A stretch of DNA of 64,000 nt from Planctomycetota bacterium (GTDB lineage Bacteria; Planctomycetota; J058), in assembly GCA_019636275.1 (NCBI GenBank), contig JAHBXY010000002.1:56213-120212 (forward strand), written 5' to 3'. Position 1 is the stretch's first letter. Every line of letters starts with the position of its first letter. Positions 30,054-52,716 of this stretch are shown one piece after another. The notes beneath the pieces are model-generated. The model did not search any database. It was not told the origin of the DNA and was given only the letters and a program-made list of their open reading frames with translations. The position numbers and the translations under genes are program-made.

Positions 30054-30221
30054 GCGAGTCCTCCCGCTCCGCGAAGTCGCGGAGTCGGTGCCGGGTGCGT
30101 GGTGTTCTTGAAGCGTGAACGCGGACCACGCGCCGCCGTGAGACGACGGCGACGCGCTGGTCGCGTGGACGTGCAGGGGCACCGTGGGCGGAGTCTCTCC
30201 GCGAACGGCGACTACACGGAG

Positions 30222-30620: not shown

Positions 30621-30650
30621 GTCGTTGAGCCATCAAGCTTCAGTAAGCTC

Positions 30651-32788: not shown

Positions 32789-32803
32789 GACGAGAGGGCC
32801 AAC

Positions 32804-36541: not shown

Positions 36542-36622
36542 CTGAGCCGGTGGCTCGGGCGCCCTAGCGAACAGGATCTCGCCGCAGGTCTCAATCGGAT
36601 CAATTAAAGAAGTGACTGCTGC

Positions 36623-37627: not shown

Positions 37628-37734
37628 GGACAACGGGGACACGGACCCATACGGTTTGCGCCCGACCTGACGCATGCGGTGTGGCGACGCAAGTGTCGCC
37701 GTGTTGTTATTTGGCAACGAACGTGAGGAATTGA

Positions 37735-38604
37735 GTGAATTCACTTGAGCGCGTTCACGCGTGCTTTCGAGGTGCGGCCGAGATCGCGAAGACAACCACA
37801 AAGACCGGGTTCGTCCTCGAAGTGACAGCCGCCGGATTTGCCATCTGGGGGCTATTTTCAGACGTGCCGCGAATGTGGTTGCCGATCACCGGCTTAGGGC
37901 TCGCATTCGCTGCGTCGTGTGTAAGAGCGCTCGGGAGCCACTGGCGCGCCTTTTCACGCGCATGCGTTAGGACGTCAGCCCGCGCATTCGCCCTAGGAGA
38001 AGACATAGATCCCGCGACACTCTCCAGCATCGAGAGCGATGCCCCGCCGCTCGCGGCACCCTTGGCGAAGTGGCTACCGGCTCAGACCTTGCAAGGGTAC
38101 TACCAGCCACGGTTTCCCGCGGGAGAGGCGCGCTTGCGAGAAATCTATGCAGAATCAGCCTTCTTCACGTGGCGTCTGCTTCGCGTTTTCTTCTGGGCGC
38201 TCCTCCTGCTGACTCTCATCATTGCGGCGGGCGCTTTCGTTGCCCTTTACGGGCTGGTCGTCCAGTCTCCGACTGACGAGAACGTCAAGCGCGCCATCCT
38301 CGAAACATTGTGCTCCGTTACTGTCGCGATCTTTGGGATGAAGGCGGCGGAGCAGACAATTGAGGTCTTCGGCCAGGCTTCGTCCGTTCGTTCAGTAGCG
38401 GATGCCTTGATCCGAGCTCCCCTCCCTTGCGGCAAGGTTCTGGGCGAACTGGTCGACGATTACGACATCCAAATGTCTGCAGGGAAAGATCCTCCGACGC
38501 TGCTCTGGGTCCTGATGCGATCGAGCTTGAACGAACAGTGGAATCGTAGGCGTGAGGCCCTTGGACCTGTTCCCCCGACGGCGACATCGAGCGCGGAACA
38601 GTGA
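37735..38604 (+). CDS. multi-pass transmembrane protein, putative CBASS membrane effector
   Basis: Hydrophobic helices (FVLEVTAAGFAIWGLF; LPITGLGLAFAA; FFWALLLLTLIIAAGAFVALYGLVV; ILETLCSVTVAIFGM) immediately downstream of the CD-NTase. Confidence 0.45.
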   Translation: MNSLERVHACFRGAAEIAKTTTKTGFVLEVTAAGFAIWGLFSDVPRMWLPITGLGLAFAASCVRALGSHWRAFSRACVRTSARAFALGEDIDPATLSSIESDAPPLAAPLAKWLPAQTLQGYYQPRFPAGEARLREIYAESAFFTWRLLRVFFWALLLLTLIIAAGAFVALYGLVVQSPTDENVKRAILETLCSVTVAIFGMKAAEQTIEVFGQASSVRSVADALIRAPLPCGKVLGELVDDYDIQMSAGKDPPTLLWVLMRSSLNEQWNRRREALGPVPPTATSSAEQ

Positions 38605-38702
38605 AACCGGCTGAGCAGCGTCGCGTTTGTCGGGCTGCATACGAGAGTATGTAGGCGAATGTCCGGGCCTCCGCCGTGATGCCTCAGGCTTGAACGGCGT
38701 AG

Positions 38703-39665
38703 GTGCCCAATGTGGGCGAAGGACGCTACGCTGATCTCGTGGAAGAGTCGGACACGCGGTCACGAGAGGACGCTCGCCGTGAGACAACCTGGGCTGGGTG
38801 GTGTGAGGACGTTATTGCCCGCGCGTCACTGGCACCCGGGCATGCCGAACGGGCCCGCTGTCTGCTCCCGCTACTTGTGCCTGACGAAGCTACGGCGGAC
38901 ACGCTCTCGCGGGCCTACGCATCACGCACGACGCAGTCAGCCCGTGCTGCCCTCCGAGCGTCTGTTCGAGCACTCGCCGTGAGTGTGCCTGGTGTGGCGG
39001 ATGGAAGCGTGCTGGTCGCGAGCGAGCTGTTGGAGCTTGAGTCGAGGGAACAGGACGAGACGCTCTCCGGAATCGGTCAGCACGGAGTCGACGGAGACGC
39101 AGTTATCTGGAGCGACGAAGGTCCGACCCTTCGCGAGGGCGACGGAGTGTTGGAGACACGCGCCCTCCTCTCGGCCCTTCTCGAACTGTCGGCGGTCCGC
39201 CCGGCAGTCCAAGAGCTCGGCTTCACCGTGCTCGACGGCGCCACCACGCCGACCTTCCAGCAGGATCTCCGTCGTGCGTGGGCGATCGTCAACGGCGACC
39301 CGGTGCCGTCGACCGCGAGCAACGGCGAGCCGCCGACGCCGGACGCGTTGACGTCAGTGGCCAATGAGCTTCGAGCGCTTCGCGCGGAGGTGGCCCGACG
39401 GGCCACCCCGTACGAGGGGACTGTCGACTGGATCGAGGACGTGGTTGCCGCGCTGCCGCCGCTGCTGGAGCAAGGCGAAGCCGCCAAGGCCCTCGGGGTG
39501 GATCCGCGCACCATCAGGCGCATGATCAACCGGGGCGAGTTGAAGTCCGTTGACGTAGGAGAAGGCGGCCGGGGACGATCTTGCGGCGTACGGATTCCTC
39601 GCGTCGCGATCGCCGACTTCTTGCGCGAGAAGGAAGCGCGCGGCCAGCGACCTTCTTCGCCGTGA
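38703..39665 (+). CDS. hypothetical protein with C-terminal excisionase/AlpA-like HTH
   Basis: EAAKALGVDPRTIRRMINRGELKSVDVG...RIPRVAIADFL; adjacent to integrase. Confidence 0.45.
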   Translation: MPNVGEGRYADLVEESDTRSREDARRETTWAGWCEDVIARASLAPGHAERARCLLPLLVPDEATADTLSRAYASRTTQSARAALRASVRALAVSVPGVADGSVLVASELLELESREQDETLSGIGQHGVDGDAVIWSDEGPTLREGDGVLETRALLSALLELSAVRPAVQELGFTVLDGATTPTFQQDLRRAWAIVNGDPVPSTASNGEPPTPDALTSVANELRALRAEVARRATPYEGTVDWIEDVVAALPPLLEQGEAAKALGVDPRTIRRMINRGELKSVDVGEGGRGRSCGVRIPRVAIADFLREKEARGQRPSSP

Positions 39666-39668
39666 CCG

Positions 39669-41075
39669 CTACGTGGTCGCGGAGTCGATGGAGACGACGG
39701 CGACGCTGCTCGAAGACCCCCGGCGCTTGAGGCGAGCCACGATCGCAGCCACGTCGGCGGTGATGCCCATCGCAGCCTCGAGCGTCTTCGCGGACTTGCT
39801 GATGCCCTTGAGCAGCCCGACATAGTGACGCTCGGCGATCACGATCGAATGGCCGAGGCGCTTGGCGGAGTGGAAAGCGGCGGCGGCCGCGTAGATGCCC
39901 GGCGCGTTGGTCAGGAACGTGCCGCACGTGGCCCGCAGCGCGGGCGTCTCGTCCTCGGTCTGCGACCAGCAGAAGTCCGGCGCACCGAGCTCGTCGACGA
40001 GGCGCTTGCGCGCCGACTCGACCTTGGAACGAGACCAGGGCTCCTTGCCACCGAAGACGTACACGTCGTCCTTTCCGCGCTCGAGGGCCTCCAGGATCTT
40101 CTTGAGGCCCGGGCAGATGCTGAGGTCGATCGCGCGCTCGTGACCCGTCTTGACGTCGCCGGCGCGCAGGACGATCTCCCCTGCCTTCCTGCCCCGGCCG
40201 TCGCGGGCGTCGAAGTCGACGGAGGCCCAGCGGAGCATGAGCGCCTCGTCGCGGCGGCAGCCGGTCAGGAGCATGAAGACGATGAACGGTGCGATCGGGT
40301 CGTACTTCGGGGTGCCGCCCTTCGCACCCGCTGCCTTCTCGGTGCGAGTCATGACGAACGTGCCGGTGTCGTGGCTGAGCGCGGCCTGGAGCAGCGTCTT
40401 GATCTGCGCGACGCGGAGGAAAGCAGGCCGAGGCTTCGCGGTCTTGAGGGGCTTGATGCGGTCCTTGATGTCGTCGGACGTGATGTGAGGCAGGCGGCCG
40501 ACTCGGCGGAGCTGGTTAAGGATCGCCTTGACGGAGCGCAGGCGGTTGTTGACCCCACCGGGGGAGCAGGTGCGATCGCTCGGCGCGCGCTCGGTGCGGC
40601 GTCCGCCCTTGACGGGCCTCTTGGCGGGCCTCGCCGCCAGCCACTCGACGAACGCGGCCAGGTGGTGCGGCCGGAGATCGTCGGCGAGACGGATCCGGTT
40701 GATGTTCGCCCACTCGAGGAAGATCGTCGTGGCGGTGCGGTAGGTCTTTGGGGTGGACCCCTTGAGCCGCGCGCCCTTGGTGCTGAAGTAGCCCTCGATC
40801 GCGTCCGCGAGAGACGCGCCGGTGTGTGTCGCCGCCCCCGTGGCGAGCTTGCGCTCGCGTTCGCCCAGCGCGAGGGACTTCGTGATCATCCACTTCCGGC
40901 GCCCCTCCGCGGTCGTGATCCCCTCTGGCTCGAAGGAGAACTCCCGCGGCTTCCCGGTGTCCGGGTCGAACCAGCGCGCGCGGAGGTCGAGGCCGGCTGC
41001 GCTCCGTCGCTTGACCTCGAACACGCCCGGATGGGCCGACCTGGCCCTCCGGCGCTGCACCTTCTTCACGATCAC
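39669..41075 (-). CDS. int: tyrosine-type site-specific recombinase / phage integrase
   Basis: C-terminal catalytic region LLTGCRRDEALMLRW ... HSAKRLGHS ... ERHYVG; N-terminal SAM-like domain. Confidence 0.8.
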   Translation of the reverse strand: MIVKKVQRRRARSAHPGVFEVKRRSAAGLDLRARWFDPDTGKPREFSFEPEGITTAEGRRKWMITKSLALGERERKLATGAATHTGASLADAIEGYFSTKGARLKGSTPKTYRTATTIFLEWANINRIRLADDLRPHHLAAFVEWLAARPAKRPVKGGRRTERAPSDRTCSPGGVNNRLRSVKAILNQLRRVGRLPHITSDDIKDRIKPLKTAKPRPAFLRVAQIKTLLQAALSHDTGTFVMTRTEKAAGAKGGTPKYDPIAPFIVFMLLTGCRRDEALMLRWASVDFDARDGRGRKAGEIVLRAGDVKTGHERAIDLSICPGLKKILEALERGKDDVYVFGGKEPWSRSKVESARKRLVDELGAPDFCWSQTEDETPALRATCGTFLTNAPGIYAAAAAFHSAKRLGHSIVIAERHYVGLLKGISKSAKTLEAAMGITADVAAIVARLKRRGSSSSVAVVSIDSATT

Positions 41076-41085
41076 CTCCGATCGG

Positions 41086-41146
41086 CTCAGTCAACAAGCC
41101 AGTCAACAATAGCGCGTCCGTCGGGGTCCGTGCGAGTCCGTCGGAG
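41086..41146. promoter_or_regulatory. direct repeats (2 x agtcaacaa; 2 x (c/a)gtccgtcgg(g/a)g) between integrase start and tRNA fragment, candidate arm-type recombinase-binding sites
   Basis: Seen in sequence; related GTCAA(C/T)A motifs recur at 41325 and 41337 on the other side of the tRNA fragment. Confidence 0.3.
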
Positions 41147-41199
41147 TTCCGTAAATGCCTGTGCGGCAACGTATCTACTGACGGCCCAGGAGGCCTGGC

Positions 41200-41246
41200 C
41201 GTGACTGAAAATCACGGAGTCGGCGGTTCAAGTCCGCCCTCGTCCA
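41200..41246 (+). other. 3' fragment of a tRNA-Phe(GAA) gene (anticodon arm, variable loop, T-arm, acceptor 3' strand + discriminator A); 5' half absent. Putative att site of the integrase
   Basis: cgtga-CTGAAAA-tcacg (anticodon GAA), gagtc, ggcgg-TTCAAGT-ccgcc, ctcgtcc-a; upstream sequence cannot form acceptor or D stems. Confidence 0.55.
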
Positions 41247-41260
41247 TGCGGTAAGAGAAG

Positions 41261-41287
41261 AAGGCCCCGGCGGTCGCGCCGGGGCCT
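41261..41287 (+). terminator. perfect 12-bp GC-rich hairpin (aaggccccggcg-gtc-cgccggggcctt) followed by cttctgcgtt, likely the original tRNA terminator
   Basis: Seen in sequence 15 nt after the tRNA fragment. Confidence 0.5.
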
Positions 41288-41708
41288 TCTGCGTTCCGGC
41301 GGAGCCGCGGTCGTTCAGTCAATACGCCGGTCAACATTCGCGCGGGCCATGGCCGCGCCCGATGACAACGGGCCGCCTCTCGTGGTCAGGAGCCGCACTC
41401 CTGATCCAAGGGGCTCGCGTGCGCGTGCCCCCTCCTGAGCTCACAGGGTGGAGCTTCTTCGGCGCGGTCGCGGACTGGGCTGCAGCACGAGGCACCGAAC
41501 CGGTGCCAGGAGAGCTGCATGTCCCTTCTGCTTCTCGACCTCGACGCCCGCGTCCGCGTCGCCATGATCGCGGAGCTCGATCGCGACCTCGCCGGCGACG
41601 GCCCCTTCATCTCGCCGCGGCTCACGCCGCCGGGGGTCGCGCTCGTGGAGCTCGTGAGCGTGGCGGCCCGCCAGGCCGCGACGGTCGGCCGGAACGAGGT
41701 CTGCCCTC

Positions 41709-42437
41709 GTGGTGCGCCCGGCGCGAACGGGAAGCGGAAGAAGTTCAAGAACTGCTGCCTGGTCCCGCTCGATCGCGTGGGGCCGCCGGCAGGGAGCGGC
41801 GGTGGACGACGAACTGATCGACGACCTGGTCGAGCGCGACGCGGCCGTGTCGGTGTGGCGCTTCCACGAGGAGCCGCGCGCGCTGTGGTCGGTGATCCGC
41901 GACTTCCTGGGCGGCGGCGGTCACGCGCCGAACGCGGCGCACGTGGCGCTGGCGCGCCTGCCGCTCGCGGGCGTCGTCACGCAGAACGTCGACGGCCTGC
42001 ACCAGGCGACCGGGACGCGCGCGCCGATCGTCGAGCTGCACGGGTCGCTCCTGGCGACCCGCTGCGACGCGTGCGGCGCGCGCGGGCCGGCGTGCGCGGC
42101 GCTGCTCGACGGGCCGCTGCCGCCCCCGTGCGCCTGCGGCGCCGCCCTGCGGCCCGACGTCGTGCTCTTCGGCGAGTGGGTCGCGCCCGACCGGCTCGCG
42201 CGGGCGCGGGCGCTCGTCGAGCGCTGCGACCTCTTGCTCGTCGTCGGCACGGCGGCCGACGTGTCGCCCGCGGCCGACCTCGTCCGGCTCGCCGCGGCGC
42301 GCGGGGCGCCGGTCGCCGAGGTCAAGCGGCGGCCGTCGTGCCTGCACGAGGCGGCAGGTACGCGGCACCTCCCGGGGGCGGCGGAGGACGTGCTGCCGGC
42401 GGTCGTCGAGCGCCTGCGCGCGCGGGGGACGGCGTGA
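41709..42437 (+). CDS. Sir2-family (CobB-like) protein lacking the N-terminal Rossmann GAGIS motif (truncated/frameshifted)
   Basis: PNAAHVALARL...VVTQNVDGLHQ...ELHGS...CDACG...CACG zinc ribbon; in-frame stop at 41655 prevents N-terminal extension; upstream frame (41519-) has coding GC3 and a SEC-C-like motif KRKKFKNCC. Confidence 0.55.
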   Translation: MVRPARTGSGRSSRTAAWSRSIAWGRRQGAAVDDELIDDLVERDAAVSVWRFHEEPRALWSVIRDFLGGGGHAPNAAHVALARLPLAGVVTQNVDGLHQATGTRAPIVELHGSLLATRCDACGARGPACAALLDGPLPPPCACGAALRPDVVLFGEWVAPDRLARARALVERCDLLLVVGTAADVSPAADLVRLAAARGAPVAEVKRRPSCLHEAAGTRHLPGAAEDVLPAVVERLRARGTA

Positions 42438-43069
42438 GCCTCGACGACGAGCTGCGCCGGCTCGAGCGCGCCGCGGCGCAGGGCGACCCGGAGGCGGCCG
42501 CGCGCCTGGAGGAGCTCCGCCGGCGCGCGGGGCGGCTGATCCCGGTGCCGTTAGTGATCCCGCCCCTCGGCGCGACCGTCGAGGAGGCGGAGGTCGGCGA
42601 GGTCGAGGTCCAGGTCGGGGCGCACGTGCACAAGGGCCAGCCGCTGGTCGTGCTCGAGACCGACAAGGTGTCCGTCGAGCTGGTCGCGCCGGCGGACGGC
42701 GTCGTGACGGCCGTGTCGGCGGGGGCCGGCGAGCGGCTGAGGATCGGCGCCGAGGTGGTGCAGCTCGCCTGCGCCGACCTGCCCGACGACGACCCGTGGG
42801 CGCTCCTGGCCGTGGCGCGCGCCGCGCAGGCGAGCGGGCACGCCGAGCTCGCCCTGCGCGCGCTCGACCGCGCCGTCCCGGCCGCCTCGTGCGGGGCGCT
42901 CTACCGCGAGCGCGACGCCGGGGTCGAGGGCGTCGCGCGCGCGGCGCTACGAGGCGCTCGGGCGGCGGGAGGCGCGGGCCGCTGGCGCGCCGCGCTGGAG
43001 GCGGCGCGCGGCGATGAGGCCCTGCGCGCCGAGGCGGCGGCGCGGCTGGCGGCGCTGGACGCCGGCTGA
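42434..43069 (+). CDS. lipoyl/biotinyl-attachment-like domain protein
   Basis: GTG start overlapping sirtuin stop (GTGA); VVLETDKVSVELVAPADGVVTAV resembles lipoyl-domain core; Ala/Arg-rich C-terminus. Confidence 0.45.
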   Translation: MSLDDELRRLERAAAQGDPEAAARLEELRRRAGRLIPVPLVIPPLGATVEEAEVGEVEVQVGAHVHKGQPLVVLETDKVSVELVAPADGVVTAVSAGAGERLRIGAEVVQLACADLPDDDPWALLAVARAAQASGHAELALRALDRAVPAASCGALYRERDAGVEGVARAALRGARAAGGAGRWRAALEAARGDEALRAEAAARLAALDAG

Positions 43070-43118
43070 CCCGCGCGAGGTGCCGCGGCTGCACGGCCCG
43101 ACGGGCGCGCCATGTGAA
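43011..43118. repeat. direct repeat copy 1 (~105 bp, ~85% identical to 44751-44860); includes the 3' end of gene 42434..43069
   Basis: Aligned by eye: gcgcgcggcgaYgaggccctgcgcgccgaggcRgcggcgcggctggcggcgctggac...tgacc...ggctgcacggcccgac. Confidence 0.7.
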
Positions 43119-44750: not shown

Positions 44751-44860
44751 GAGGCGCGCGGCGACGAGGCCCTGCGCGCCGAGGCAGCGGCGCGGCTGGC
44801 GGCGCTGGACACGGGTTGACCCCACGCAAGCGCGGCGGCTGCACGGCCCGACCGCGTGCC
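44751..44860. repeat. direct repeat copy 2 (duplicated 3' end ...RGDEALRAEAAARLAALD(T/A)G*)
   Basis: See copy 1. Confidence 0.7.
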
Positions 44861-44894
44861 ATCGATCCCACCCTCCGTGCATGGAGGGTGACGC

Positions 44895-45929
44895 GTGCTC
44901 TGCGACAAGACGACCCTGCGTGCGCGCTACGACGCGATCCTGGCCGCGGGCTGCCTCGACCCGGCGCAGCAGGCGCGGGTCCGGGCGGGCGAGGCGCCGC
45001 CCGGGGTCGTGCTCCAGCAGAGCGGCGGCTCGAGCGGCGAGGCGCCCCTGCGGCTCCCCAAGGCCCGGGCCGAGACGGCCTGGCTGATCGACCGGCTGGC
45101 CGGGCACCACCGCCGCGTCTTCGGCGAGGCGCCCCGGCGCGTGGCGTTCGTCGGCGGCGTGACGCACCTCCAGGCGGGGCGCGTGGAGGGCCTGTTCCCC
45201 GGCGGCGTGACGCGCAGCTTCCGCCTGCGCGAGTGGGACGCGCTGGTCGCGTTCCAGCCGGACCTCCTCTCCTGCTACCCGAGCGCGGCGCGCGACCTCG
45301 TCGTCCGCGACGCCGCGGCGCTCGGCTGCGTGCGCACGCTGAAGCTCGGCGGCGAGACCGTCCTGCCGGCCGACCGGGCGCGCCTCCTCGAGCGCCTCCC
45401 GGGGGTCCTGCTCCTCGAGCAGTTCGGCTCGACCGAGATGCCTTGCCTGGCGCTCCGCGCCACGACCCGCGACGAGGACACGGGCTACGTCCTGAGCCGC
45501 GACCGCTACGCGTTCAGCTTCGAGCCGCCCGGCGAGGGCTGGCGCGAGGTCGTCGTGCGCGACGACCTCCCGGCGCGGGCGTTCCCGATCCCCGGCTGGT
45601 ACCGCACCGGCGACGAGGCGCTCCTCGACCCGGGCGGCCGCGTCCTGGCCCTGCGGCGCCGGGGCGACCCCGCCGCGCCGTTCCTCGACGCGCTCGACGC
45701 GCTGGTCCGCGCGGGCTGCACGCAGGTGCAGGTGGACCTGCGCGACCGCACGCTGCGCCTCGAGGCCGGGCCGGAGGTGCGGCTCGAGCGCGAGGTGGTC
45801 CTCGGCGGCGTCACGCTCGCCGTCGAGCGCGGGCCGGTCTACCGGCTGAAGGACTCGAACAAGGCGCCGCTGGTCCTGGCGGCGGTGGGCCGCGCGCCGA
45901 CCTGGCGCCGGCCGGAGGAGGAGGCATGA
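44895..45929 (+). CDS. adenylate-forming enzyme, phenylacetate-CoA ligase (PaaK)/F390-synthetase-like
   Basis: QQSGGSSGEAP (SxGTTGxP-like P-loop), YRTGD motif; GGAGGG RBS before GTG. Confidence 0.6.
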   Translation: MLCDKTTLRARYDAILAAGCLDPAQQARVRAGEAPPGVVLQQSGGSSGEAPLRLPKARAETAWLIDRLAGHHRRVFGEAPRRVAFVGGVTHLQAGRVEGLFPGGVTRSFRLREWDALVAFQPDLLSCYPSAARDLVVRDAAALGCVRTLKLGGETVLPADRARLLERLPGVLLLEQFGSTEMPCLALRATTRDEDTGYVLSRDRYAFSFEPPGEGWREVVVRDDLPARAFPIPGWYRTGDEALLDPGGRVLALRRRGDPAAPFLDALDALVRAGCTQVQVDLRDRTLRLEAGPEVRLEREVVLGGVTLAVERGPVYRLKDSNKAPLVLAAVGRAPTWRRPEEEA

Positions 45930-46924
45930 GCTCGCCGTTCACGATCACCACGGTGGAGGAGCTGCGCGCCGGCGTCGGCGAGCTGCTCGAGCGCGTCTAC
46001 GTCGACGAGTGGGGCAAGCGCCTGGCGCCCGCCGCCGGGCGCACGCGCCGCGGATCGAGCCGCACGCTGATCGCGGTCGACCGGGGCCGCGTCGTGGGGA
46101 CCGCCCGGCTCACCCGCGGCTCGGTCCTGCCGCTCGAGGAGCAGCGCCGCCTCCAGCTCCCGCACTTCGCCGCCGTCGTCCCGCTCGAGCGGCTGGCGGT
46201 CGGCGGGCGCCTCGCCGTCGCCGCGCCCCTGCGCTCGTCGGGCCTGGCGCACGACCTGCTGCAGGCCGCGATCCGCGCGGCGGTCGACGACGGCGTGCGG
46301 CTGCTGTTCACCGCCTGCCAGCCGCACCTGCTGAACCTCTACGGCCAGCTCGCGTTCACCCCCTACGGGCCGGTCTCGAGCAAGGAGGGCGTGGGCGTCC
46401 TGGTCCCGGTGGTCCGCGACCTGACCCCGGGCGACGCGGCCCTGCGCGACCTGATCGCGAGCGCGCCCGGTCACGCGGCGCGCTGCCGGCTCCCGGGCGA
46501 GCTCGGCGAGGCCCTCGCGGGGAGCCCGCTCGACCCGACCGTCGCCGCGGCGGTGCTGCGCAGCGCGGCCCTCGTCCCCTGCGGCCCGGGCGACCTCGTC
46601 GTCAGCCGCGGGCAGGCGGTCCGCACGCTGTTCCTCGTGCTCGAGGGGCGGATCGACGTCGTCGACGACGGGCAGGTCGTCGACGTCGTCGCGCGCGGCG
46701 AGTTCGCGGGCGTGGTCAGCTACCTGCTCGGGGTGCGGCAGCGCCGCGACCTGCGCGCCGGCCCCGAGGGCGCCCGGCTCCTGGCCCTGCCCGTCCAGGC
46801 CTTCGCCAGCCGCGGCGACGACGAGGCCGCCGCCGAGGCGTTCCTGCTGACCCTGGTCGCGACGCTCCGCGCGCGCTGCCCGCACGCGGCCGCCCGCCTG
46901 GTCAGCCCTGGAGGTGTCGCGTGA
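45926..46924 (+). CDS. GNAT-fold N-acyltransferase (acyl-amino-acid/AHL-synthase-like) fused to a C-terminal cyclic-nucleotide-binding domain
   Basis: ATGA overlap with upstream gene; LLFTACQPHLLNLYGQLAFTPYG; cNMP-binding signature RGEFAGVVSYLLGVRQRRDLRA. Confidence 0.5.
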   Translation: MSSPFTITTVEELRAGVGELLERVYVDEWGKRLAPAAGRTRRGSSRTLIAVDRGRVVGTARLTRGSVLPLEEQRRLQLPHFAAVVPLERLAVGGRLAVAAPLRSSGLAHDLLQAAIRAAVDDGVRLLFTACQPHLLNLYGQLAFTPYGPVSSKEGVGVLVPVVRDLTPGDAALRDLIASAPGHAARCRLPGELGEALAGSPLDPTVAAAVLRSAALVPCGPGDLVVSRGQAVRTLFLVLEGRIDVVDDGQVVDVVARGEFAGVVSYLLGVRQRRDLRAGPEGARLLALPVQAFASRGDDEAAAEAFLLTLVATLRARCPHAAARLVSPGGVA

Positions 46925-47802
46925 GCGTCCTCGTCGAGGGCAGCGGCACGGCGCAGATGATCGCGCGCTGCCTGGTCCTGCTCCGCGCCTCGGCCGGGCC
47001 CGCCGCGCCCGTGTCCGAGCGCGCCGCCCTGCTCGCCCTGGCGTTCCTGCGCGAGGCGCGCCCCCCGTGGCGCCGCGCGCTCGAGGCCGGCCTGGCGCGC
47101 GGGCGCCTCCGGCTGCTCGAGGCGCTGACGATCCCCGGCCTCGTCGGCCAGTACGCCCTGCGCAAGCGCTGGCTCGAGGACGTCGCCCGGCGCGCCGTGG
47201 CGGCGGGGGTGCGGCGCGTGGTGGTGGTCGGGGCGGGCTACGACCCGCTCGCCGCGACGCTCGCGGCCGAGCTCCCGCACGTGCGCTTCGTCGAGCTCGA
47301 CCACCCGGCCACGCAGGCGCCCAAGCGGCGCGCCCTCGAGGCGCTCGGGCTCCTCGGCCCGGTCGAGCTCCTGGCCGTCGACCTCGAGCGCACGTCGCTG
47401 GCCGACGCCCTCGGCGGGCGCGCCGACCGCGCGCTGCCGACGCTCTTCGTCGCCGAGGGCCTCCTCATGTACTTCCCGGCCGCCGCCGTCGGCGCCTTCT
47501 TCGAGGACCTGGGCCGGGTCGCGGGGCCGGGGAGCCAGGTGGCGTTCAGCTTCATGGAGCCGGACGCCGGCGGCGGGCTGGCCTACCGCGGCTCGACGCG
47601 GCTGGCGAACGCCTGGCTCCGCTGGCGCGGCGAGCCCCTGCGCTGGGGGATCGCGCGCGCCGCGCTGGCCGACTTCCTTCACGGCCACGGCCTCTCGCTG
47701 CTCGAGACCGCCGCGTCCGACGAGCTGCGCGACCGCTACCTGCCCGGCGCCGAGGTCGCGCGGGGCGAGGTCCTGGCCCTGGCGCGGCTGGAGGGGCCCT
47801 GA
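46921..47802 (+). CDS. SAM-dependent methyltransferase (leucine-carboxyl/TcmP-like O-methyltransferase family)
   Basis: GTGA overlap; VVVVGAGYDPL motif; length ~293 aa. Confidence 0.6.
   Translation: MSVLVEGSGTAQMIARCLVLLRASAGPAAPVSERAALLALAFLREARPPWRRALEAGLARGRLRLLEALTIPGLVGQYALRKRWLEDVARRAVAAGVRRVVVVGAGYDPLAATLAAELPHVRFVELDHPATQAPKRRALEALGLLGPVELLAVDLERTSLADALGGRADRALPTLFVAEGLLMYFPAAAVGAFFEDLGRVAGPGSQVAFSFMEPDAGGGLAYRGSTRLANAWLRWRGEPLRWGIARAALADFLHGHGLSLLETAASDELRDRYLPGAEVARGEVLALARLEGP
47653..47802. repeat. direct repeat copy 1 = 3' end of the methyltransferase gene; copy 2 at 52612-52716 has a ~48-bp internal deletion
   Basis: gcgcgccgcgctggccgacYtcct...gcgcgRccgctacctgcccggcgccg(a/c)ggtcgcgcggggcgaggtcct(g/c)gccctggcgcgg. 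Confidence 0.7.
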
Positions 47803-47874
47803 TGCCGACCGCGGAAGCTCGAGCGTGGCCGCGCCCCCCGCCTCCTCATGGCAGGGGCGGCGTCCGGAGGGACG

Positions 47875-48747
47875 ATGAGTCCCATGTCCGACGGGTCCAT
47901 GCCAGCGGCGTTCCTGGGCCACGGCAGCCCCATGAACGCGCTGGAGACGAATCGCTTCACGGCGGCCTGGCGGGCGTTCGGCGCGAGCGCTCCGCGGCCG
48001 CGCGGCATCGTCGTCGTCTCGGCGCACTGGTACGTGAACGTCACGGCGGTGACCGCCATGCCGTCGCCGCGCACGATCCACGACTTCTACGGCTTCCCGC
48101 GGCCGCTGTTCGAGGTGCAGTACCCCGCGCCGGGCGACCCCGGCCTCGCCGAGGAGGTCGCCGAGGTGGCGAAGCCCACCTCGGTCGGCCTGGACCACGA
48201 CGGCTGGGGGCTCGACCACGGCACCTGGTCGGTGCTGGTCCACGCCTTCCCGCGCGCCGACGTCCCGGTCGTGCAGCTCTCGATCGACGCGCGGCGGACG
48301 TTCGACGAGCACCTCGAGCTCGGGGCGCGGCTGGCGCCGCTCCGCGCGCGTGGCGTGCTGGTCCTGGGCAGCGGTAACGTCGTCCACAACCTGCGCGAGC
48401 TCGACTGGTCCCGGCCGGACCTGGGCGAGGACTGGGCGCGGCGCTTCGACGACGCCGCGCGCGAGGTGCTGGCCGAGCGCCCGGCCGACGCGGCCGCGCT
48501 CCAGGGCCACCCCGAGTTCCGCCGGGCCCACCCGACGCCGGACCACTTCCTCCCCCTGCTGTACGTCGCCGGCGCGGCGGCCGCGGCGGGCAAGCCCCTG
48601 CGGCGGCTCGTCGCAGGGCACGCCTACGGCTCGATCTCCATGGCCGCGTACGGGCTCGCCGCGGCCTGCCCGGAGACCTCCGAGGGCGGCCCCGCCGCGA
48701 GCCTCCCGGACCCGCGCGTCGTCCCCCCGGCGGACGCGAACGTCTGA
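47875..48747 (+). CDS. class III extradiol ring-cleavage dioxygenase (LigB family; YgiD/DOPA-dioxygenase-like)
   Basis: MPAAFLGHGSPMNALE...VVSAHW...; typical length. Confidence 0.7.
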   Translation: MSPMSDGSMPAAFLGHGSPMNALETNRFTAAWRAFGASAPRPRGIVVVSAHWYVNVTAVTAMPSPRTIHDFYGFPRPLFEVQYPAPGDPGLAEEVAEVAKPTSVGLDHDGWGLDHGTWSVLVHAFPRADVPVVQLSIDARRTFDEHLELGARLAPLRARGVLVLGSGNVVHNLRELDWSRPDLGEDWARRFDDAAREVLAERPADAAALQGHPEFRRAHPTPDHFLPLLYVAGAAAAAGKPLRRLVAGHAYGSISMAAYGLAAACPETSEGGPAASLPDPRVVPPADANV

Positions 48748-49013
48748 TCCGAGGAGAAACCAGGTCGGGTCGATGCGCCACCTGCGCAGGAGCGGCGCGG
48801 ACGAGGGGCCACGGAGGTCCCGGCGGCGGGTCGGGCGAGCCCCCGGTTCGCGCGCTCGCGCTGCAACGGCGTACGTCGAGCGGCCTCGCGCGCGCGGTGG
48901 CCGTTGGTCCCGCACGTGCGCTACCTCGGCACGAGGAGAGGGACGCCGCGAGACCGAGGAGCTCGCCGCCGGCGGGGTCACGGTCGTGTCTGGATCCCGG
49001 AGGAAGGTGAAGC

Positions 49014-49604
49014 ATGCTCAAGCTGGCCATCATCATTGGGAGCACGCGCCCGGGGCGCGTCGGCGAGAGCGTCGCTCGGTGGGTCCACGAGGTGGCGCAG
49101 CGGCGCGACGACGCGGAGTTCGAGCTGGTCGACATCGAGGACTTCGACCTGCCGCTGCTGGACGAGCCGATCCCGCCCGCCATGGGCAAGTACTCGAAGC
49201 CCCACACGAAGCGCTGGGCGGCGAAGATCGCCTCCTTCGACGGCTTCGTCTTCGTGACGCCCGAGTACAACCACGGCATCTCCGGCGCGCTGAAGAACGC
49301 GATCGACTTCCTCTACGCCGAGTGGAACGACAAGGTGGCCGGGTTCGTCGGCTACGGCAGCGCGGGCGGCGCGCGGGCCGTGGAGCAGCTGCGGCTGGTC
49401 ATGGCCGAGGTGCAGGTCGCGACGGTGCGCAACCAGGTCATGCTCTCGTTGCGCGAGGACTTCGAGGACTACAGCAGGTTCAGGCCGCGCAGCTTCCACG
49501 AGCAGGCGCTCGGTCAGGTGCTCGACCAGGTCGTCGCCTGGAGCGGCGCGCTCCGCGGCGTCCGGGAGGGGCACGCGACGTCCGGCGCGTCCACGCGCGG
49601 GTAG
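49014..49604 (+). CDS. NAD(P)H-dependent FMN reductase (flavodoxin-like fold)
   Basis: MLKLAIIIGSTRPGRVGE...FVTPEYNHGISGALKNAIDFL. Confidence 0.7.
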   Translation: MLKLAIIIGSTRPGRVGESVARWVHEVAQRRDDAEFELVDIEDFDLPLLDEPIPPAMGKYSKPHTKRWAAKIASFDGFVFVTPEYNHGISGALKNAIDFLYAEWNDKVAGFVGYGSAGGARAVEQLRLVMAEVQVATVRNQVMLSLREDFEDYSRFRPRSFHEQALGQVLDQVVAWSGALRGVREGHATSGASTRG

Positions 49605-49606
49605 CG

Positions 49607-50650
49607 ATGCGCGCGCTGCAGGTGCGGCCGGGGCGCGGGGGCGGGGCGGACCTGGTGTCCGTCGACGAGCCGTCGCCCGACGAGGGCTCCGTCCTCGTCG
49701 AGGCGCTCGCGCTCGGGGTGTGCGGGACGGACCGCGAGATCGTGCGCGACGAGTACGGCGCGCTGCCCCCCGGCGACGAGGCGCTGGTGCTCGGGCACGA
49801 GTCGCTGGGCAGGGTCCTCGCCGCGCCCGCCGGGTGCGAGCTCGCGGCGGGCGACCTCGTGGCCGGCGTCGTGCGACATCCCGACCCGGTCCCCTGCTCG
49901 AGCTGCGGCGCCGGCGAGCCCGACATGTGCAAGAACGGCCGCTACACCGAGCGCGGGATCAAGGGGCGGCACGGCTTCGGGCGCGAGCGCTACCGCCTCG
50001 AGCCGGCCTTCGCGATCAAGGTGCCGCCCGCGCTCGGCCACCTCGGCGTCCTCATCGAGCCCGCGAGCGTCCTGGCGAAGGCCTGGGAGCACATCGAGCG
50101 CATCGGCCGGCGCGCGCACTGGGCGCCGCGCAGGGCCCTCGTGACGGGCGCCGGCCCCGTGGGTCTGCTCGCGGCGCTCATGGCGCGGCAGCGCGGGCTC
50201 GACGTCCACGTCGTCGACCTCGCGCGCGACGGCCCCAAGCCGCAGCTCGTGCGCGACCTCGGCGCCACGTACCACGTGGTCGACGTGGCGAAGGCCTGCA
50301 CGACCGCCGACGTGATCGTCGAGTGCACGGGCGCGCCCGCGCTCGTGCTCGAGGCCATGCGCTGCAACGCGGGCGGCGGGATCGTGTGCCTGGCGGGCCT
50401 GTCCGGCTCGAAGACGCTGGACGTGGACGTGGGCGCGCTGAACCAGCGCCTCGTGCTGCACAACGACGTGATCTTCGGCACGGTCAACGCGAACCGTCGC
50501 CACTACCGCGACGCGGCGGAGGCCCTGCTCGCCGCCGACCGCGCCTGGCTCGAGCGGCTCATCACCCGGCGCGTGCCGCTCGCGCGCTGGGCCGACGCGC
50601 TCGAGGCGCACGAGCACGACGTCAAGGTGGTGATCGACTTCGCCGCGTAG
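49607..50650 (+). CDS. zinc-dependent dehydrogenase, MDR superfamily (glucose-1-dehydrogenase/threonine-dehydrogenase-like)
   Basis: GVCGTDRE, GHE, CxxCxxGxxxxC structural-zinc motif, Rossmann GAGPVGLL. Confidence 0.7.
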   Translation: MRALQVRPGRGGGADLVSVDEPSPDEGSVLVEALALGVCGTDREIVRDEYGALPPGDEALVLGHESLGRVLAAPAGCELAAGDLVAGVVRHPDPVPCSSCGAGEPDMCKNGRYTERGIKGRHGFGRERYRLEPAFAIKVPPALGHLGVLIEPASVLAKAWEHIERIGRRAHWAPRRALVTGAGPVGLLAALMARQRGLDVHVVDLARDGPKPQLVRDLGATYHVVDVAKACTTADVIVECTGAPALVLEAMRCNAGGGIVCLAGLSGSKTLDVDVGALNQRLVLHNDVIFGTVNANRRHYRDAAEALLAADRAWLERLITRRVPLARWADALEAHEHDVKVVIDFAA

Positions 50651-50667
50651 GCGGCGGGAGGGCGGGG

Positions 50668-52500
50668 ATGCCCGCACGGATCGAGGACTACGGGCTCCTG
50701 GGCGACTGCCACTCGGCGGCGCTCGTCTCGCGGGACGGCTCGATCGACTGGCTGTGCTGGCCGCGCTTCGACTCGCCCGCCTGCTTCGCGGCGCTGCTCG
50801 GGACCCCGGACCACGGGCGCTGGCGGATCGCGCCCGAGGGCGCGGTGCGGCGCTCGAACCGCCGGTACCGCGACGGGACGCTCGTCCTCGAGACCGAGCT
50901 CGAGACGGCCGAGGGCGTCGTCGCGCTCATCGACTTCATGCCGCCGCGGGCGGACTGCCCCGAGCTGGTGCGGATCGTCGAGGGCCGGCGCGGCGAGGTC
51001 CCCATGCGCATGGAGCTGATCATGCGCCTCGACTACGGCTCCGTCGTGCCGTGGGTCCGCCGCACCGAGGGCGGTCTGCGCGCCAACGCCGGCCCCGACA
51101 CGCTGCACCTGTTCACGGACGTCGACATCCACGGCGAGGACTTCCGGACGCTGGCCGAGTTCTCGGTGAAGGCGGGCGAGCGCCGCACCTTCCAGCTCGT
51201 GTGGTCACCGACCTTCGGACCCTCGCGACCGTGCGCCGACGCGAGCGGGAAGCTCGAGGAGACCGAGCGCTGGTGGCGCGCCTGGCTCCGCGCGTGCTCT
51301 TACGAGGGGCCCTGGCGCGACGCCGTGCTCAGGTCCTCGCTCGTGCTCAAGGCGCTGACCTACGCGCCGACGGGTGCGATCGTCGCCGCGCCGACGACGT
51401 CGTTGCCCGAGGAGCTCGGCGGCGTGCGCAACTGGGACTACCGCTACTGCTGGCTGCGCGACGCCACGTTCGCGCTCTACGCCTTCCTCGTCGGCGGCTA
51501 CGTCGACGAGGCCGCGGCCTGGCGCGAGTGGCTCGCCAACGCCGTGGCCGGCAAGCCGGAGCAGCTCCACATCATGTACGGCCTCGAGGGCGAGCGCCGC
51601 CTGCCGGAGCTCGAGCTGCCGTGGCTGCCGGGCTACGAGGGCTCGCGGCCCGTCCGCGTGGGCAACGCCGCGCACCACCAGCACCAGCTCGACGTGTACG
51701 GCGAGGTCATGGACGCGCTGCACGTCGCCCGACGCCTCGGCCTGGCCACGACCGAGGACAGCTGGCGCGTGCAGCGGGTGATCGTGCGCTTCCTCGAGCG
51801 CGACTGGCAGCGGCCGGACGACGGCATCTGGGAGGTCCGCGGGGGGCCTCGGCACTTCACCCACTCGAAGGTCATGGCCTGGGTCGCAGCCGACCGCGCC
51901 GTGAAGGCGGTCACGGAGTTCGGGCTCCCGGGCGACGTCGAGCGCTGGCGCCGCCTGCGCGACGAGATCCACGCCGAGGTGTGCGCGCGGGGGTTCGACC
52001 CGCAGCTCGGCGCGTTCGTCCAGCACTACGGCTCGAAGGTCCCGGACGCCAGCCTGCTCATGCTGCCCGCCGTCGGGTTCCTGCCGGCGACGGACCCGCG
52101 CATGGTCGGCACGGTGCGCCTCATCGAGCAGCGCCTGGTGCGTGACGGGTTCGTCGATCGGTACCCGACCGAGCGCGGCGTCGACGGCCTGCCCGGCGGC
52201 GAGGGCGCGTTCCTGCTCTGCACGTTCTGGCTCGTCGACAACCTGGCCCTGCAAGGCCGCCATGACGAGGCGCTCGAGCTCTTCGAGCGCCTCCTCTCGA
52301 TCAGGAACGACCTCGGCCTGCTCTCCGAGGAGTACGACCCGGTCGCGCGGCGCCTGCTCGGCAACTTCCCGCAGGCCTTCTCTCACATCGGCCTGATCAA
52401 CTCCGCGCGCAACCTGGCCGAGCACGGCGGCCCGGCGGAGGACCGCCGGGACCAGGACGCCCGCGCTCAGCGGCCGCTCGCGGCCGCCAGGAGGCGCTGA
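50668..52500 (+). CDS. glycoside hydrolase family 15 protein (glucoamylase/trehalase-like (alpha/alpha)6 barrel)
   Basis: MPARIEDYGLLGDCHSAALVSRDGSIDWLCWPRFDSP...; NWDYRYCWLRDA; GGAGGGCGGGG RBS. Confidence 0.75.
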   Translation: MPARIEDYGLLGDCHSAALVSRDGSIDWLCWPRFDSPACFAALLGTPDHGRWRIAPEGAVRRSNRRYRDGTLVLETELETAEGVVALIDFMPPRADCPELVRIVEGRRGEVPMRMELIMRLDYGSVVPWVRRTEGGLRANAGPDTLHLFTDVDIHGEDFRTLAEFSVKAGERRTFQLVWSPTFGPSRPCADASGKLEETERWWRAWLRACSYEGPWRDAVLRSSLVLKALTYAPTGAIVAAPTTSLPEELGGVRNWDYRYCWLRDATFALYAFLVGGYVDEAAAWREWLANAVAGKPEQLHIMYGLEGERRLPELELPWLPGYEGSRPVRVGNAAHHQHQLDVYGEVMDALHVARRLGLATTEDSWRVQRVIVRFLERDWQRPDDGIWEVRGGPRHFTHSKVMAWVAADRAVKAVTEFGLPGDVERWRRLRDEIHAEVCARGFDPQLGAFVQHYGSKVPDASLLMLPAVGFLPATDPRMVGTVRLIEQRLVRDGFVDRYPTERGVDGLPGGEGAFLLCTFWLVDNLALQGRHDEALELFERLLSIRNDLGLLSEEYDPVARRLLGNFPQAFSHIGLINSARNLAEHGGPAEDRRDQDARAQRPLAAARRR

Positions 52501-52611
52501 CGGTCGCCGGCCTCCGAAGGGGCTCGGGAGCGCCCAGGTGGACGGTCTCGGTGGCGCTCCCAGGACCTGCACGTCGTCGCCGGTCCGGGGAGCCGGGCGG
52601 CGTTCAGGCCT

Positions 52612-52716
52612 CATGCGCGCGCCGCGCTGGCCGACCTCCTGCGCGGCCGCTACCTGCCCGGCGCCGCGGTCGCGCGGGGCGAGGTCCTCGCCCTGGCGCG
52701 GGTGGGGCTCACCTGA
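52612..52716. repeat. direct repeat copy 2 of the methyltransferase 3' end (...LRGRYLPGAAVARGEVLALARVGLT*)
   Basis: See 47653-47802. Confidence 0.7.

Follow-up and report, generated by a model that had tools for sequence, protein, structure and literature searches.

In a window of 64,000 nucleotides, the whole stretch of DNA from a contig of a Planctomycetota bacterium that was analysed, three overlapping genes raise the question of what might be produced jointly by a PaaK-like ligase, a putative N-acyltransferase of the GNAT type fused to a domain of the cyclic-nucleotide-binding (CNB) fold, and a SAM-dependent methyltransferase. A second question is whether the fused domain places this product under the control of cAMP or cGMP, as was assumed in the original prediction for this locus.

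Organisation and conservation of the gene trio

A GC3 frame plot revealed three successive frames on the + strand with a third-position GC of 0.93-1.00, which correspond to the genes A, B and C. Gene A (44895-45929, + strand) begins with GTG and codes for a 344 aa ANL enzyme of an unnamed family. Gene B (45926-46924, + strand) begins with ATG and codes for a protein of 332 aa, in which an N-terminal GNAT half is fused to a C-terminal CNB-like half, and gene C (46921-47802, + strand) begins with GTG and codes for a 293 aa SAM-dependent methyltransferase of the LCM/TIGR00027 family. The ATGA and GTGA overlaps that had been proposed to link the genes were confirmed in the sequence: at 45926-45929, the ATG start of B shares bases with the stop codon of A, and at 46921-46924, the GTG start of C shares bases with the stop codon of B. 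Shine-Dalgarno-like motifs were read from the sequence ahead of all three starts on the + strand, namely GGAGGG for A (44883-44888, 6 nt upstream of the GTG), GGAGGAGGAGG for B (45914-45924) and GGAGG for C (46910-46914). The two 4-nt overlaps and the Shine-Dalgarno-like motif before every start support the predicted translational coupling of A, B and C.

The same A-B-C arrangement with identical 4-nt overlaps was identified at further loci, all on metagenomic contigs, designated L001 (GCA_024711045.1), L002-L004 and L005-L007. The flanking genes are unrelated, and the trio is kept in at least three differing genomic contexts. In blastn comparisons to the window, L001 showed a DNA similarity of 80%, confined to 44853-47784, and L002 one of 73%, confined to 44928-47790; in both cases, the similarity ends at the borders of the trio. 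Conservation of the genomic context had been named earlier as a way to check the prediction, and the trio does recur with the same overlaps between differing flanks. A and B appear to be located on one contig in all seven sequence clusters. A scan of genome contigs with the B alignment gave zero matches, and at that sensitivity the trio is absent from the GTDB species representatives. In the literature, no paper on the GNAT-CNB fusion or on the A-B-C trio was found.

No Rfam family, tRNA, sigma-70 promoter or intrinsic terminator was identified in scans for these elements. Neither a carrier protein nor a CoA-related gene is present within the A-B-C operon, and among the window genes scanned from 41.7 to 55.5 kb, no nucleotide cyclase gene adjoins the trio and no O-acyltransferase of PF01553/PF19576 was identified. 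The gene for a LigB dioxygenase at 47848-48747, downstream of the trio, was a candidate for a fourth member and was excluded, since L002 does not keep it next to A-B-C and L005 has it in truncated form. A Sir2 gene is located 2.5 kb upstream of the trio in the window and in L005; at L001 and L002, Sir2 is absent. Reading the neighbourhood of Sir2, NACHT and the CNB domain as a defence system was without meaningful PADLOC support, the sole match of B being a marginal one of 21 bits to the PycC model, across the CNB part. Pycsar or another cNMP-based anti-phage system was rejected as well, since such systems need a CNB effector together with a cyclase, and here a nearby cyclase gene is absent and the PycC match is marginal.

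The ligase, the N-acyltransferase half and the methyltransferase

For A, a confident structural model was obtained (pLDDT 91.7), in which the two-domain fold of adenylate-forming enzymes is present. PaaK-type ligases were the closest in a fold search with this model, with NatL2 and AjiA1 among the top hits, so that the PaaK-like ligase predicted before was borne out at the level of the fold. A stays below the cut-off of the Pfam model AMP-binding (PF00501; 18.5 bits, cut-off 29.9), and its best reach in a PDB profile search was BT_0428, with an E of 0.26. The P-loop and FGSTE of A align with their counterparts in BT_0428. All ANL core motifs that were checked, the P-loop [ST][ST]G[ST][ST]G..PK, YGxTE, Y[RK]TGD and a C-terminal catalytic Lys, were found in A, which contains QSGGSSGEAPLRLPK (P-loop), EQFGSTEM, GWYRTGDE, RRRGD and DSNKAPL. 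Across 10 A homologs, QSGGSSGEAPLRLPK, FGSTE, YRTGD and DSNK323APL hardly vary, if at all, and by motif order, Lys323 in DSNKAPL is the candidate for the catalytic A10 lysine.

PaaK1, 2-hydroxyisobutyryl-CoA ligase, NatL2, AjiA1 and ClxA consist of about 430 aa and are about 90 residues longer than A, with which PaaK-family ligases share an identity of only 15-19%. The family of A comprises about 46 database clusters from many phyla, all but one of them labelled hypothetical or unnamed. Within the PaaK family, NatL2 and AjiA1 function without CoA.

The GNAT domain of B (residues 1-165; 45926-46420, + strand) was classified as FeeM/Acetyltransf_5-like. B matches FeeM (PF21926) marginally, with 28.7 bits (cut-off 27), and Acetyltransf_1 with 27.7 bits (cut-off 20.7); PF13444 (Acetyltransf_5, the OlsB family) is not matched by B from the window itself. 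Among 101 relatives of B, matches at E <= 1e-3 were obtained to FeeM for 94 and to PF13444 for 77, and NCBIfam gave weak matches of the relatives to OlsB and exosortase-acyltransferase models. From the 15 residues that are near-invariant in the GNAT half of the wider family, 13 are kept in B of the window, including R95, R103 and C131-x-P133-H134-L135. Since the AF2 model of B from a 9-sequence alignment was of very low quality (pLDDT 54.6), the GNAT subtype was assigned by sequence profiles alone. These profiles support the assignment of the N-terminal half as a putatively N-acylating GNAT of the FeeM/OlsB type, the kind found in N-acyl amino acid synthases.

The predicted fusion of a GNAT to a cNMP-binding domain held, with FeeM, Acetyltransf_1 and cNMP_binding each passing their Pfam cut-offs. 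Neither an insignificant cNMP-binding signature nor, at the level of sequence profiles, another fold in the GNAT half was found, although the margins of FeeM and cNMP_binding over their cut-offs are narrow in B of the window, at only about 2-4 bits. When clustered at 50% identity, at least 140 full-length clusters have the GNAT-CNB architecture, with no characterised member, so that the fusion is not rare. The view that a GNAT gated by cAMP or cGMP is unusual was not supported, since this many clusters share the architecture and a cAMP-gated GNAT, mycobacterial Pat (Rv0998), has already been characterised.

C passes the curated cut-offs of both LCM (PF04072; 96.2 bits, cut-off 22.3) and TIGR00027 (113.9 bits, cut-off 93.55), in agreement with the SAM methyltransferase proposed before, and contains the SAM-binding motifs VVVVGAGYDPLA, VELDHP and AEGLLMYF. 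The relatives nearest to C in the PDB, ML2640 (2ckd) and Rv0731c (6id6), are both without an assigned substrate. Substrates of characterised LCM/TIGR00027-family members are a protein C-terminal leucine, a tRNA base and a polyketide carboxylate, and by analogy to these members, C may catalyse a carboxyl O-methylation. Characterised members of the family, to which LCMT1 and TcmP belong, are not known to act on N-acyl amino acids.

The altered cassette of the CNB-like domain

The CNB-fold domain of B (residues 216-332; 46571-46921, + strand) was identified by its Pfam match to cNMP_binding (PF00027; 31.2 bits, cut-off 27.5), a model matched by all 101 relatives. The closest PDB sequences to this part are the CNB-homology domain of KCNH1, as the best match, and the CNBD of HCN2. 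The KCNH1 domain is not known to bind cNMPs. By alignment to HCN2 and 134 family members, the equivalent of the phosphate-binding cassette, RGEFAGVVSYLLGVRQRRDLRAGPEGARLLAL, was located at residues 258-289 (46697-46792, + strand). The canonical cassette was defined as G-E ... R-[ST]-A, comprising the ribose-binding Glu, the phosphate-binding Arg and Thr/Ser, and in its place the window has G-V ... Q-R-R, with Val263 in the position of Glu, Gln272 (codon 46739-46741) in that of Arg and Arg273 in that of Thr/Ser.

In the clade of the window, all ten sequences have Gln in place of the phosphate-binding Arg. The Thr/Ser position is occupied by Arg in eight and by Pro in one of them, Thr being kept in a single sequence, and the ribose-contacting Glu at position 263 is kept in seven of the ten, with Val in the window and its closest relative. 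The wider family of 134 has a canonical cassette like that of PKA and PKG, with Glu in 125, Arg in 126 and Thr/Ser in 98 members. A shift of the register is unlikely, since the cassette alignment is free of gaps and has conserved flanks. Arg271, which is invariant and adjoins Gln272, is no stand-in for Arg272, since many canonical members (RRTA-type) likewise have Arg at 271; it might still touch a phosphate.

The residues that normally hold cAMP and cGMP have thus been lost, so that control of B by these nucleotides is doubtful, and from the sequence, classical gating by cNMPs is unlikely. The second-messenger control of the original prediction could not be upheld, with the phosphate Arg missing throughout the clade (10/10), Thr/Ser missing in 9/10 and the ribose Glu missing also in the window. 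The C-terminal domain of B descends from a genuine cNMP-binding domain and, with the phosphate- and ribose-contacting residues lost in this clade, probably no longer senses cAMP or cGMP. Within the clade, 75% of the cassette-equivalent stretch is invariant, compared to 47% of the GNAT domain. Since no segment of B is more conserved than this one, the altered cassette is probably still functional, and the site probably serves another ligand or an interface with A.

Related gene pairs and the predicted pathway

A-type ligases were also identified beside GNATs in distant lineages. In a Legionellales MAG with a GC content of 32%, a B-like fusion is located directly upstream of an A homolog, and its cassette Arg is replaced by Asn. 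In Pseudolabrys, a soil metagenome and Roseibacterium, the A homolog is followed by a protein of about 210 aa, the profile of which matches residues 3-126 of B (hhalign probability 93.9%, E 1.5e-7); these short GNAT partners are without a CNB domain. In P0187, a database protein, an A-type ligase and a GNAT are fused, and at L009, a PilZ-FeeM protein is located 2.7 kb from the A homolog. In two of the lineages with A and a short GNAT (L008, L025), the next gene codes for an O-acyltransferase of PF19576/PF01553, and ABC-2 or MMPL exporters adjoin the O-acyltransferase in distant loci of this type. This O-acyltransferase family carries out the second step of aminolipid synthesis (PMC11631085). 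An aminolipid gene pair of the OlsB/OlsA type was found only in the distant loci L008 and L025 and not among the scanned window genes from 41.7 to 55.5 kb. A homologs without a GNAT neighbour were found at L010, L015 and the P0199 locus. A rule that an Arg-less cassette always pairs with A was dropped, given that P0150 and P0157 are Arg-less and have no A neighbour.

Among known enzymes, the N-acyl amino acid synthases and aminolipid N-acyltransferases, namely FeeM (PF21926) and OlsB/GlsB/GluB (PF13444), resemble the GNAT half of B and its relatives. Known enzymes of the FeeM/OlsB type are single-domain proteins (with OlsF fused to an O-acyltransferase) which use acyl-ACP and do not require a dedicated ligase. 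In contrast, the GNAT of B shares its polypeptide with a CNB-like domain, its gene is translationally coupled to those of a mini-ANL enzyme and a methyltransferase, and the operon contains no O-acyltransferase. In mycobacterial Pat (Rv0998/MSMEG_5458), CNB and GNAT are also combined in one polypeptide, which is regulated by cAMP and has an ANL enzyme as partner (PMC8556138). However, the order is CNB then GNAT in Pat and GNAT then CNB in B, the GNAT of B is FeeM/OlsB-like rather than Pat-like, and the cNMP-contact residues are lost in the B clade. Against the Pat model NF058543 of NCBIfam, B from the window gave no match at E <= 1, and relatives of B matched in the CNB part only, with 22-40 bits (cut-off 460).

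An even chance is given to the reading that A, B and C form a coupled operon for a short acyl-amide pathway, leading to the methyl ester of an N-acyl amino acid or to a related lipid or signal, and that the CNB-like domain is no longer a cNMP sensor. As its fold and motifs suggest, A would adenylate a carboxylic acid, most likely a fatty or aryl/alkyl one, and the acyl-adenylate would probably be handed to CoA or a carrier. The GNAT domain of B, judged by family and neighbourhood, would then use the activated acid to N-acylate an amino acid or a similar amine, and C, as a methyltransferase of the LCM/TcmP type, may methylate the remaining carboxylate. These steps would yield an amino acid that is N-acylated and methyl-esterified, or else a lipid or signal close to it. 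The acyl-amino-acid type of pathway that had been proposed remains the best reading of the gene neighbourhoods, in which A-GNAT pairs are found beside O-acyltransferases of the aminolipid type. Counted against such a pathway was that characterised FeeM and OlsB enzymes take acyl-ACP from fatty acid synthesis and do not require a ligase dedicated to them, as were the absence of carrier and CoA-related genes from the operon and the A homologs without a GNAT neighbour.

The predicted product belongs to the same class as the N-acyl alanine methyl esters (NAMEs), being a carboxyl-methylated fatty acyl amide of an amino acid. The NAME synthase genes of Roseobacter-group bacteria were reported as unidentified (PMC11580390). 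The trio was not found in roseobacters, the sole roseobacter A homolog, that of Roseibacterium, being without an LCM partner. The link to NAMEs is kept as a chemical analogy only, since the relatives of the Roseibacterium A homolog gave no match in Roseovarius or other roseobacters.

An allosteric switch of B by cAMP or cGMP, with the pathway under classical second-messenger control, would agree with the PF00027 score above the cut-off, the canonical PKA/PKG-like cassette of the wider family, the invariant Arg271 beside the substituted position and Glu263 in seven of ten clade members. Such a switch is nevertheless unlikely, given Gln for Arg in all ten, Thr/Ser kept in one and Val for Glu in the window and its closest relative; the gap-free alignment and the presence of Arg271 in many canonical members too point the same way, as do the KCNH1 domain as best PDB sequence match and the lack of an adjacent cyclase gene. 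A low probability is assigned to a repurposed domain which binds CoA or an adenine nucleotide, such as the AMP part of the acyl-adenylate from A, or which docks A and would thereby channel the activated acid directly into the GNAT active site, without a CoA or ACP intermediate. The cassette Arg is gone from both independent lineages with the fusion beside A (replaced by Gln in the clade of the window and by Asn in Legionellales), the most conserved stretch of B is the altered cassette itself, the operon contains no carrier protein, and NatL2 and AjiA1, which function without CoA, are among the top fold hits of A. However, this correlation has an n of 2, the Arg-less P0150 and P0157 are without an A partner, and the short GNAT partners of A do without a CNB domain.

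It is very unlikely that the locus is a protein-acylation module like Pat/Acs, in which B would acylate Lys323 and switch A off, as the cAMP-dependent Pat of mycobacteria does with acetyl-CoA synthetase, with the upstream Sir2 as the deacylase. A CNB-GNAT fusion by which ANL enzymes are acetylated at the A10 lysine provides a precedent (PMC8556138), an invariant Lys is present at the corresponding C-terminal position of A, relatives of B match the CNB part of the Pat model with their CNB domains, and Sir2 is found 2.5 kb upstream in the window and L005. However, the GNAT half matches small-molecule N-acyltransferases (FeeM, PF13444, OlsB) and not Pat, the domain order is opposite, Sir2 is absent at L001 and L002, distant A and GNAT pairs adjoin aminolipid-type O-acyltransferases and exporters, and C would be left without a role. 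That A, B and C are unrelated neighbours with incidental overlaps is scarcely credible: 4-nt overlaps are frequent in compact genomes of high GC, but the trio recurs with identical overlaps in loci which otherwise share nothing, A and B appear on the same contig in 7/7 clusters, and the pairing of A with a GNAT extends across phyla.

For the preferred reading of an acyl-amide pathway, A would define an unnamed family of miniature PaaK-like ligases, one of two unnamed families to be defined, and its recurrent pairing with FeeM/OlsB-like proteins, in some cases beside exporters and O-acyltransferases of the aminolipid type, points to an undescribed entry of free acids into the synthesis of N-acyl amino acids or aminolipids. 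A more far-reaching version, which is considered improbable, is a self-contained, carrier-free route to methyl-esterified N-acyl amino acids (structural analogues of acyl-homoserine lactones, NAME-like), in which the former cNMP sensor now would be an acyl-adenylate/AMP site or a dock for A, and the canonical relatives, which number in the hundreds, would synthesise N-acyl amino acids or aminolipids under a cNMP switch. If this is true, the canonical relatives would directly tie cyclic-nucleotide signalling to the synthesis of lipids or signals, a connection of which no description was found in the searchable literature. The sequences of these relatives suggest that N-acyl amino acid or aminolipid synthesis may be directly under cAMP/cGMP control in bacteria, and the window clade would represent a natural case of a cNMP sensor that was rewired.

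Organization and conservation of the A-B-C trio

The DNA around the trio is so GC-rich (77-79%) that raw lists of open reading frames are rich in artefacts. A per-phase GC plot revealed a third-position GC of 0.93-1.00 in three consecutive plus-strand frames, matching gene A (44895-45929, GTG start, 344 amino acids), gene B (45926-46924, ATG start, 332 amino acids) and gene C (46921-47802, GTG start, 293 amino acids). In the sequence, A and B share an ATGA overlap (45926-45929, plus strand), and B and C a GTGA overlap (46921-46924, plus strand). A purine-rich Shine-Dalgarno-like run was identified upstream of every start, at a distance of 6 nt for A and C and of 1 nt for B. A, B and C are three coupled genes, and the frame plot and the sequence bear out the boundaries and overlaps originally predicted. 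The NCBI protein KF878_01280, from a metagenome-assembled genome (MAG) labelled 'Planctomycetes bacterium', is 100% identical to A.

Gene A had been predicted to code for a PaaK-like ligase, which is right at the level of the fold. With 18.5 bits, A stays below the cut-off of 29.9 for the Pfam AMP-binding family, and its NCBIfam adenylation-domain matches are weak. The ANL core motifs QSGGSSGEAPLRLPK, EQFGSTEM, GWYRTGDE, RRRGD and DSNKAPL are invariant or nearly so across ten homologs, with identities down to 39%. An AlphaFold2 model calculated from the ten-homolog alignment is confident (pLDDT 91.7, pTM 0.90), and Foldseek matched it in the PDB best to PaaK1, BT_0428, ClxA, NatL2 and AjiA1 (E 8e-12 to 1e-9, TM about 0.6), so that the modelled protein shows an ANL fold. 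In contrast to these enzymes, A is about 90 residues shorter and belongs to a family without a name; about 46 database relatives are spread over many phyla, and all but one are hypothetical or nameless. For gene C, the profile scores for LCM (96.2) and TIGR00027 (113.9) are both far beyond the cut-offs, which assigns the protein to the LCM-family methyltransferases, in line with the SAM methyltransferase that had been proposed. Among solved structures, it is closest to ML2640 and Rv0731c of mycobacteria, which are without an assigned substrate.

On the contigs of close B relatives, the A-B-C order and the 4-nt overlaps are kept among different neighbours: a WD40 protein, a kinase and a Na/H antiporter on contig L001, a 2137-residue protein and a kinase on L002, and Sir2 and a biotin/lipoyl protein on L005. 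The blastn similarity of the window to L001 (80%) and L002 (73%) is confined within the trio borders. Since the contigs of the A and B clusters match in length throughout, every B of the window clade (ten close B sequences with an altered nucleotide-binding cassette) appears beside an A.

Upstream of the trio, a Sir2-family gene overlaps the gene for a protein with a biotin/lipoyl-attachment domain (41709-43069, plus strand; L005 681-2740), a pair resembling sirtuin/lipoyl-carrier pairs. The Sir2 protein of L005 has an additional N-terminal region of 250 residues (weak TPR), which is missing in the window, where similarity to L005 begins only at about 41720-41830. A phage-integrase-family gene lies at 39669-41075 (minus strand), within the stretch 30000-41800; the GC content is 0.60-0.67 left of this gene and 0.77-0.79 from about 42000 on, and the break adjoins the start of the L005 similarity. 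An integrated element may abut the Sir2 gene and perhaps truncate it. A 100-nt direct repeat (43003-43102 and 44753-44852, 87% identical), into which the biotin/lipoyl-domain gene extends with its 3' end, brackets a 1.65-kb segment with a minus-strand gene for a polytopic membrane protein (43149 to about 44650) that has no Pfam match. The segment is missing from the 97%-identical L005, where the biotin/lipoyl gene lies directly 5' of A, and it looks like an insertion or a duplication-mediated rearrangement.

Downstream, a LigB-type dioxygenase gene begins 45 nt 3' of the trio; it was considered as a further member and rejected, since it is not kept beside the trio in L002 and is truncated in L005. 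The near-identical Logan contig L005 lacks the segments 48148-49483, 49757-51478 and 51559-52676, so that LigB, an FMN reductase, a glucose dehydrogenase and a GH15 protein are truncated or absent there; either the strain has deletions at these places or the short-read assembly has collapsed. At 52709-55456 (minus strand), a 915-residue HTH, NACHT NTPase and FGE-sulfatase protein is encoded, which lies beside the trio in L005 too, and at locus L015 an HTH/NB-ARC/TPR protein adjoins an A homolog. PADLOC gave no convincing match here, and the trio fits no known defence system.

The acyltransferase fusion of gene B and its altered cassette

B exceeds the Pfam cut-offs for FeeM (28.7; cut-off 27), Acetyltransf_1 (27.7; 20.7) and cNMP_binding (31.2; 27.5), in agreement with the predicted fusion. 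By these profiles, it is a FeeM/OlsB-type GNAT joined to a domain of the cyclic-nucleotide-binding (CNB) fold with a non-canonical phosphate-binding cassette. When 5.8 billion proteins were searched by a word index, only eight close relatives (58-97% identity) were identified. An exhaustive HMMER search of 1.84 billion representatives with the B profile gave 1570 matches at E <= 1e-3, of which 494 reached E <= 1e-10. Among the best 150 HMMER matches, almost all are proteins of 350-390 residues, aligned across both domains. When 101 of these were scanned singly, cNMP_binding was found in all, FeeM in 94 and Acetyltransf_5 (PF13444, the OlsB family) in 77.

In NCBIfam, the N-terminal half matched OlsB and the exosortase-associated acyltransferase, and the C-terminal half matched CRP or the CNB part of mycobacterial Pat; none of these matches reaches its threshold, so that the family is without a curated name. 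Source labels read 'predicted GNAT family N-acyltransferase' or 'cyclic nucleotide-binding domain-containing protein', and literature searches found no paper on the fusion or the trio. The description of a cyclic-nucleotide-gated GNAT as unusual has to be qualified: the GNAT-CNB architecture is common by HMMER, though uncharacterised, and one cAMP-gated GNAT of a different type has been described. The sampled members are standalone genes, except for one canonical FeeM-CNB fusion (P0100; locus L012, 4086-7074), directly 3' of a patatin phospholipase with a cNMP-binding domain, so that two lipid-acting CNB enzymes adjoin there.

Outside the window clade, the cassettes of 134 full-length relatives follow the consensus G-E-x-A-F-L-L ... 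R-[TS]-A-D-V, with Gly in 133, Glu in 125, Arg in 126 and Thr/Ser in 98; the family profile matched the PKG and PKA regulatory domains (E 1e-48 to 1e-22). The cassette of the window clade aligns to the family without gaps. Here, Arg is replaced by Gln in all ten sequences, Thr/Ser by Arg in eight and by Pro in one (Thr is present in one), and Ala by His, Arg or Gln, while Glu is Val in the window B and its closest relative. The HMMER alignment to HCN2 gives the same equivalences (Arg591 to Gln, Thr592 to Arg), and among PDB sequences the clade profile is matched best by the CNB-homology domain of KCNH1. Arg271 is no substitute for the lost Arg, since many canonical members carry Arg there too. 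Within the clade, 75% of residues 258-289, the altered stretch, are invariant, compared to 47% of the GNAT domain and 16% of the C-terminal helices; strong constraint acts on the altered stretch, which is not decaying. The GNAT half retains 13 of 15 near-invariant family residues, and the remaining two changes are conservative. In our reading, the acyltransferase of B is intact, and the domain fused to it is a former cNMP sensor that would now serve another role.

Pairing of A with acyltransferases in other lineages

A Legionellales MAG with 32% GC carries a B-type fusion immediately 5' of an A homolog; the fusion scores 140 bits against the family HMM, it is not sister to the window clade, and its cassette has lost the Arg too (QPNHD). 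Proteins of about 210 residues are encoded after the A homologs of Pseudolabrys, of a soil metagenome and of Roseibacterium; their profile matched B residues 3-126 (hhalign probability 93.9%, E 1.5e-7), and they score at or just below the Acetyltransf_1 cut-off. An A domain and a short GNAT are joined in the single database protein P0187, possibly by a frameshift artefact. At three A loci, no GNAT was found nearby. At L009, 2.7 kb from an A homolog, a 522-residue protein (5680-7248, minus strand) has a PilZ domain (26.8 bits) at its N-terminus and a FeeM-like GNAT (29.4 bits) at its C-terminus; it is a further type of FeeM-like enzyme fused to a receptor domain for second messengers. Its gene lies among two genes for class III nucleotide cyclases and one for a HAMP-SpoIIE phosphatase.

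Clusters of A and the short GNAT-like protein contain ABC-2 exporters at L018 (3003-6147) and L025 (478-5401) and an MMPL exporter at L008 (10001-14673), and a confirmed PF19576/PF01553 O-acyltransferase gene adjoins the pair in two lineages, at L025 and L008. This recurrent cluster looks like an undescribed aminolipid-type pathway. In aminolipid synthesis, PF13444 N-acyltransferases catalyze the first step and PF01553/PF19576 O-acyltransferases the second, and for the sulfur aminolipid SAL of roseobacters the first step was reported as unassigned (PMC11631085, a review). The O-acyltransferase and exporter neighbourhoods favour a role of the A and GNAT pair in small-molecule or lipid N-acylation.

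Predicted role of the trio

The suggestion that the pathway is under second-messenger control probably does not hold for the window clade: the alignments to the 134 relatives and to HCN2 show the cassette contact residues replaced, so that classical cAMP/cGMP gating is disfavoured and unlikely there, while it is plausible in the wider family. A second explanation is that B acylates Lys323 of A as a regulatory enzyme of the Pat type. A mycobacterial precedent (PMC8556138) and the Sir2 gene 5' of the trio speak for it; the GNAT subtype of B and the reversed domain order argue against it, Sir2 is missing in L001 and L002, and C would be left without a role, so that this explanation is disfavoured as well. 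A repurposed CNB domain, which would bind the adenylate or dock A, fits the strong conservation of the altered site and the independent loss of Arg in both A-partnered lineages, although this correlation has n = 2 and Arg-less members without an A partner exist.

For the pathway itself, A would adenylate a carboxylic acid, B would pass the acyl group onto an amino group, and C would methylate the remaining free carboxylate. The role of C is suggested because characterised LCM-family enzymes act on carboxylates. These steps would yield the methyl ester of an N-acyl amino acid, or a compound related to it. N-acyl alanine methyl esters, which are of this predicted class, occur in Roseovarius; the genes for their synthase were reported as unidentified (PMC11580390). 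No trio homolog was found in Roseovarius, so that these esters serve only as a chemical analogy. The acyl-amino-acid pathway of the original prediction is a reasonable idea which the A and GNAT neighbourhoods now support, and such a pathway would belong to N-acyl amino acid or aminolipid-type synthesis.
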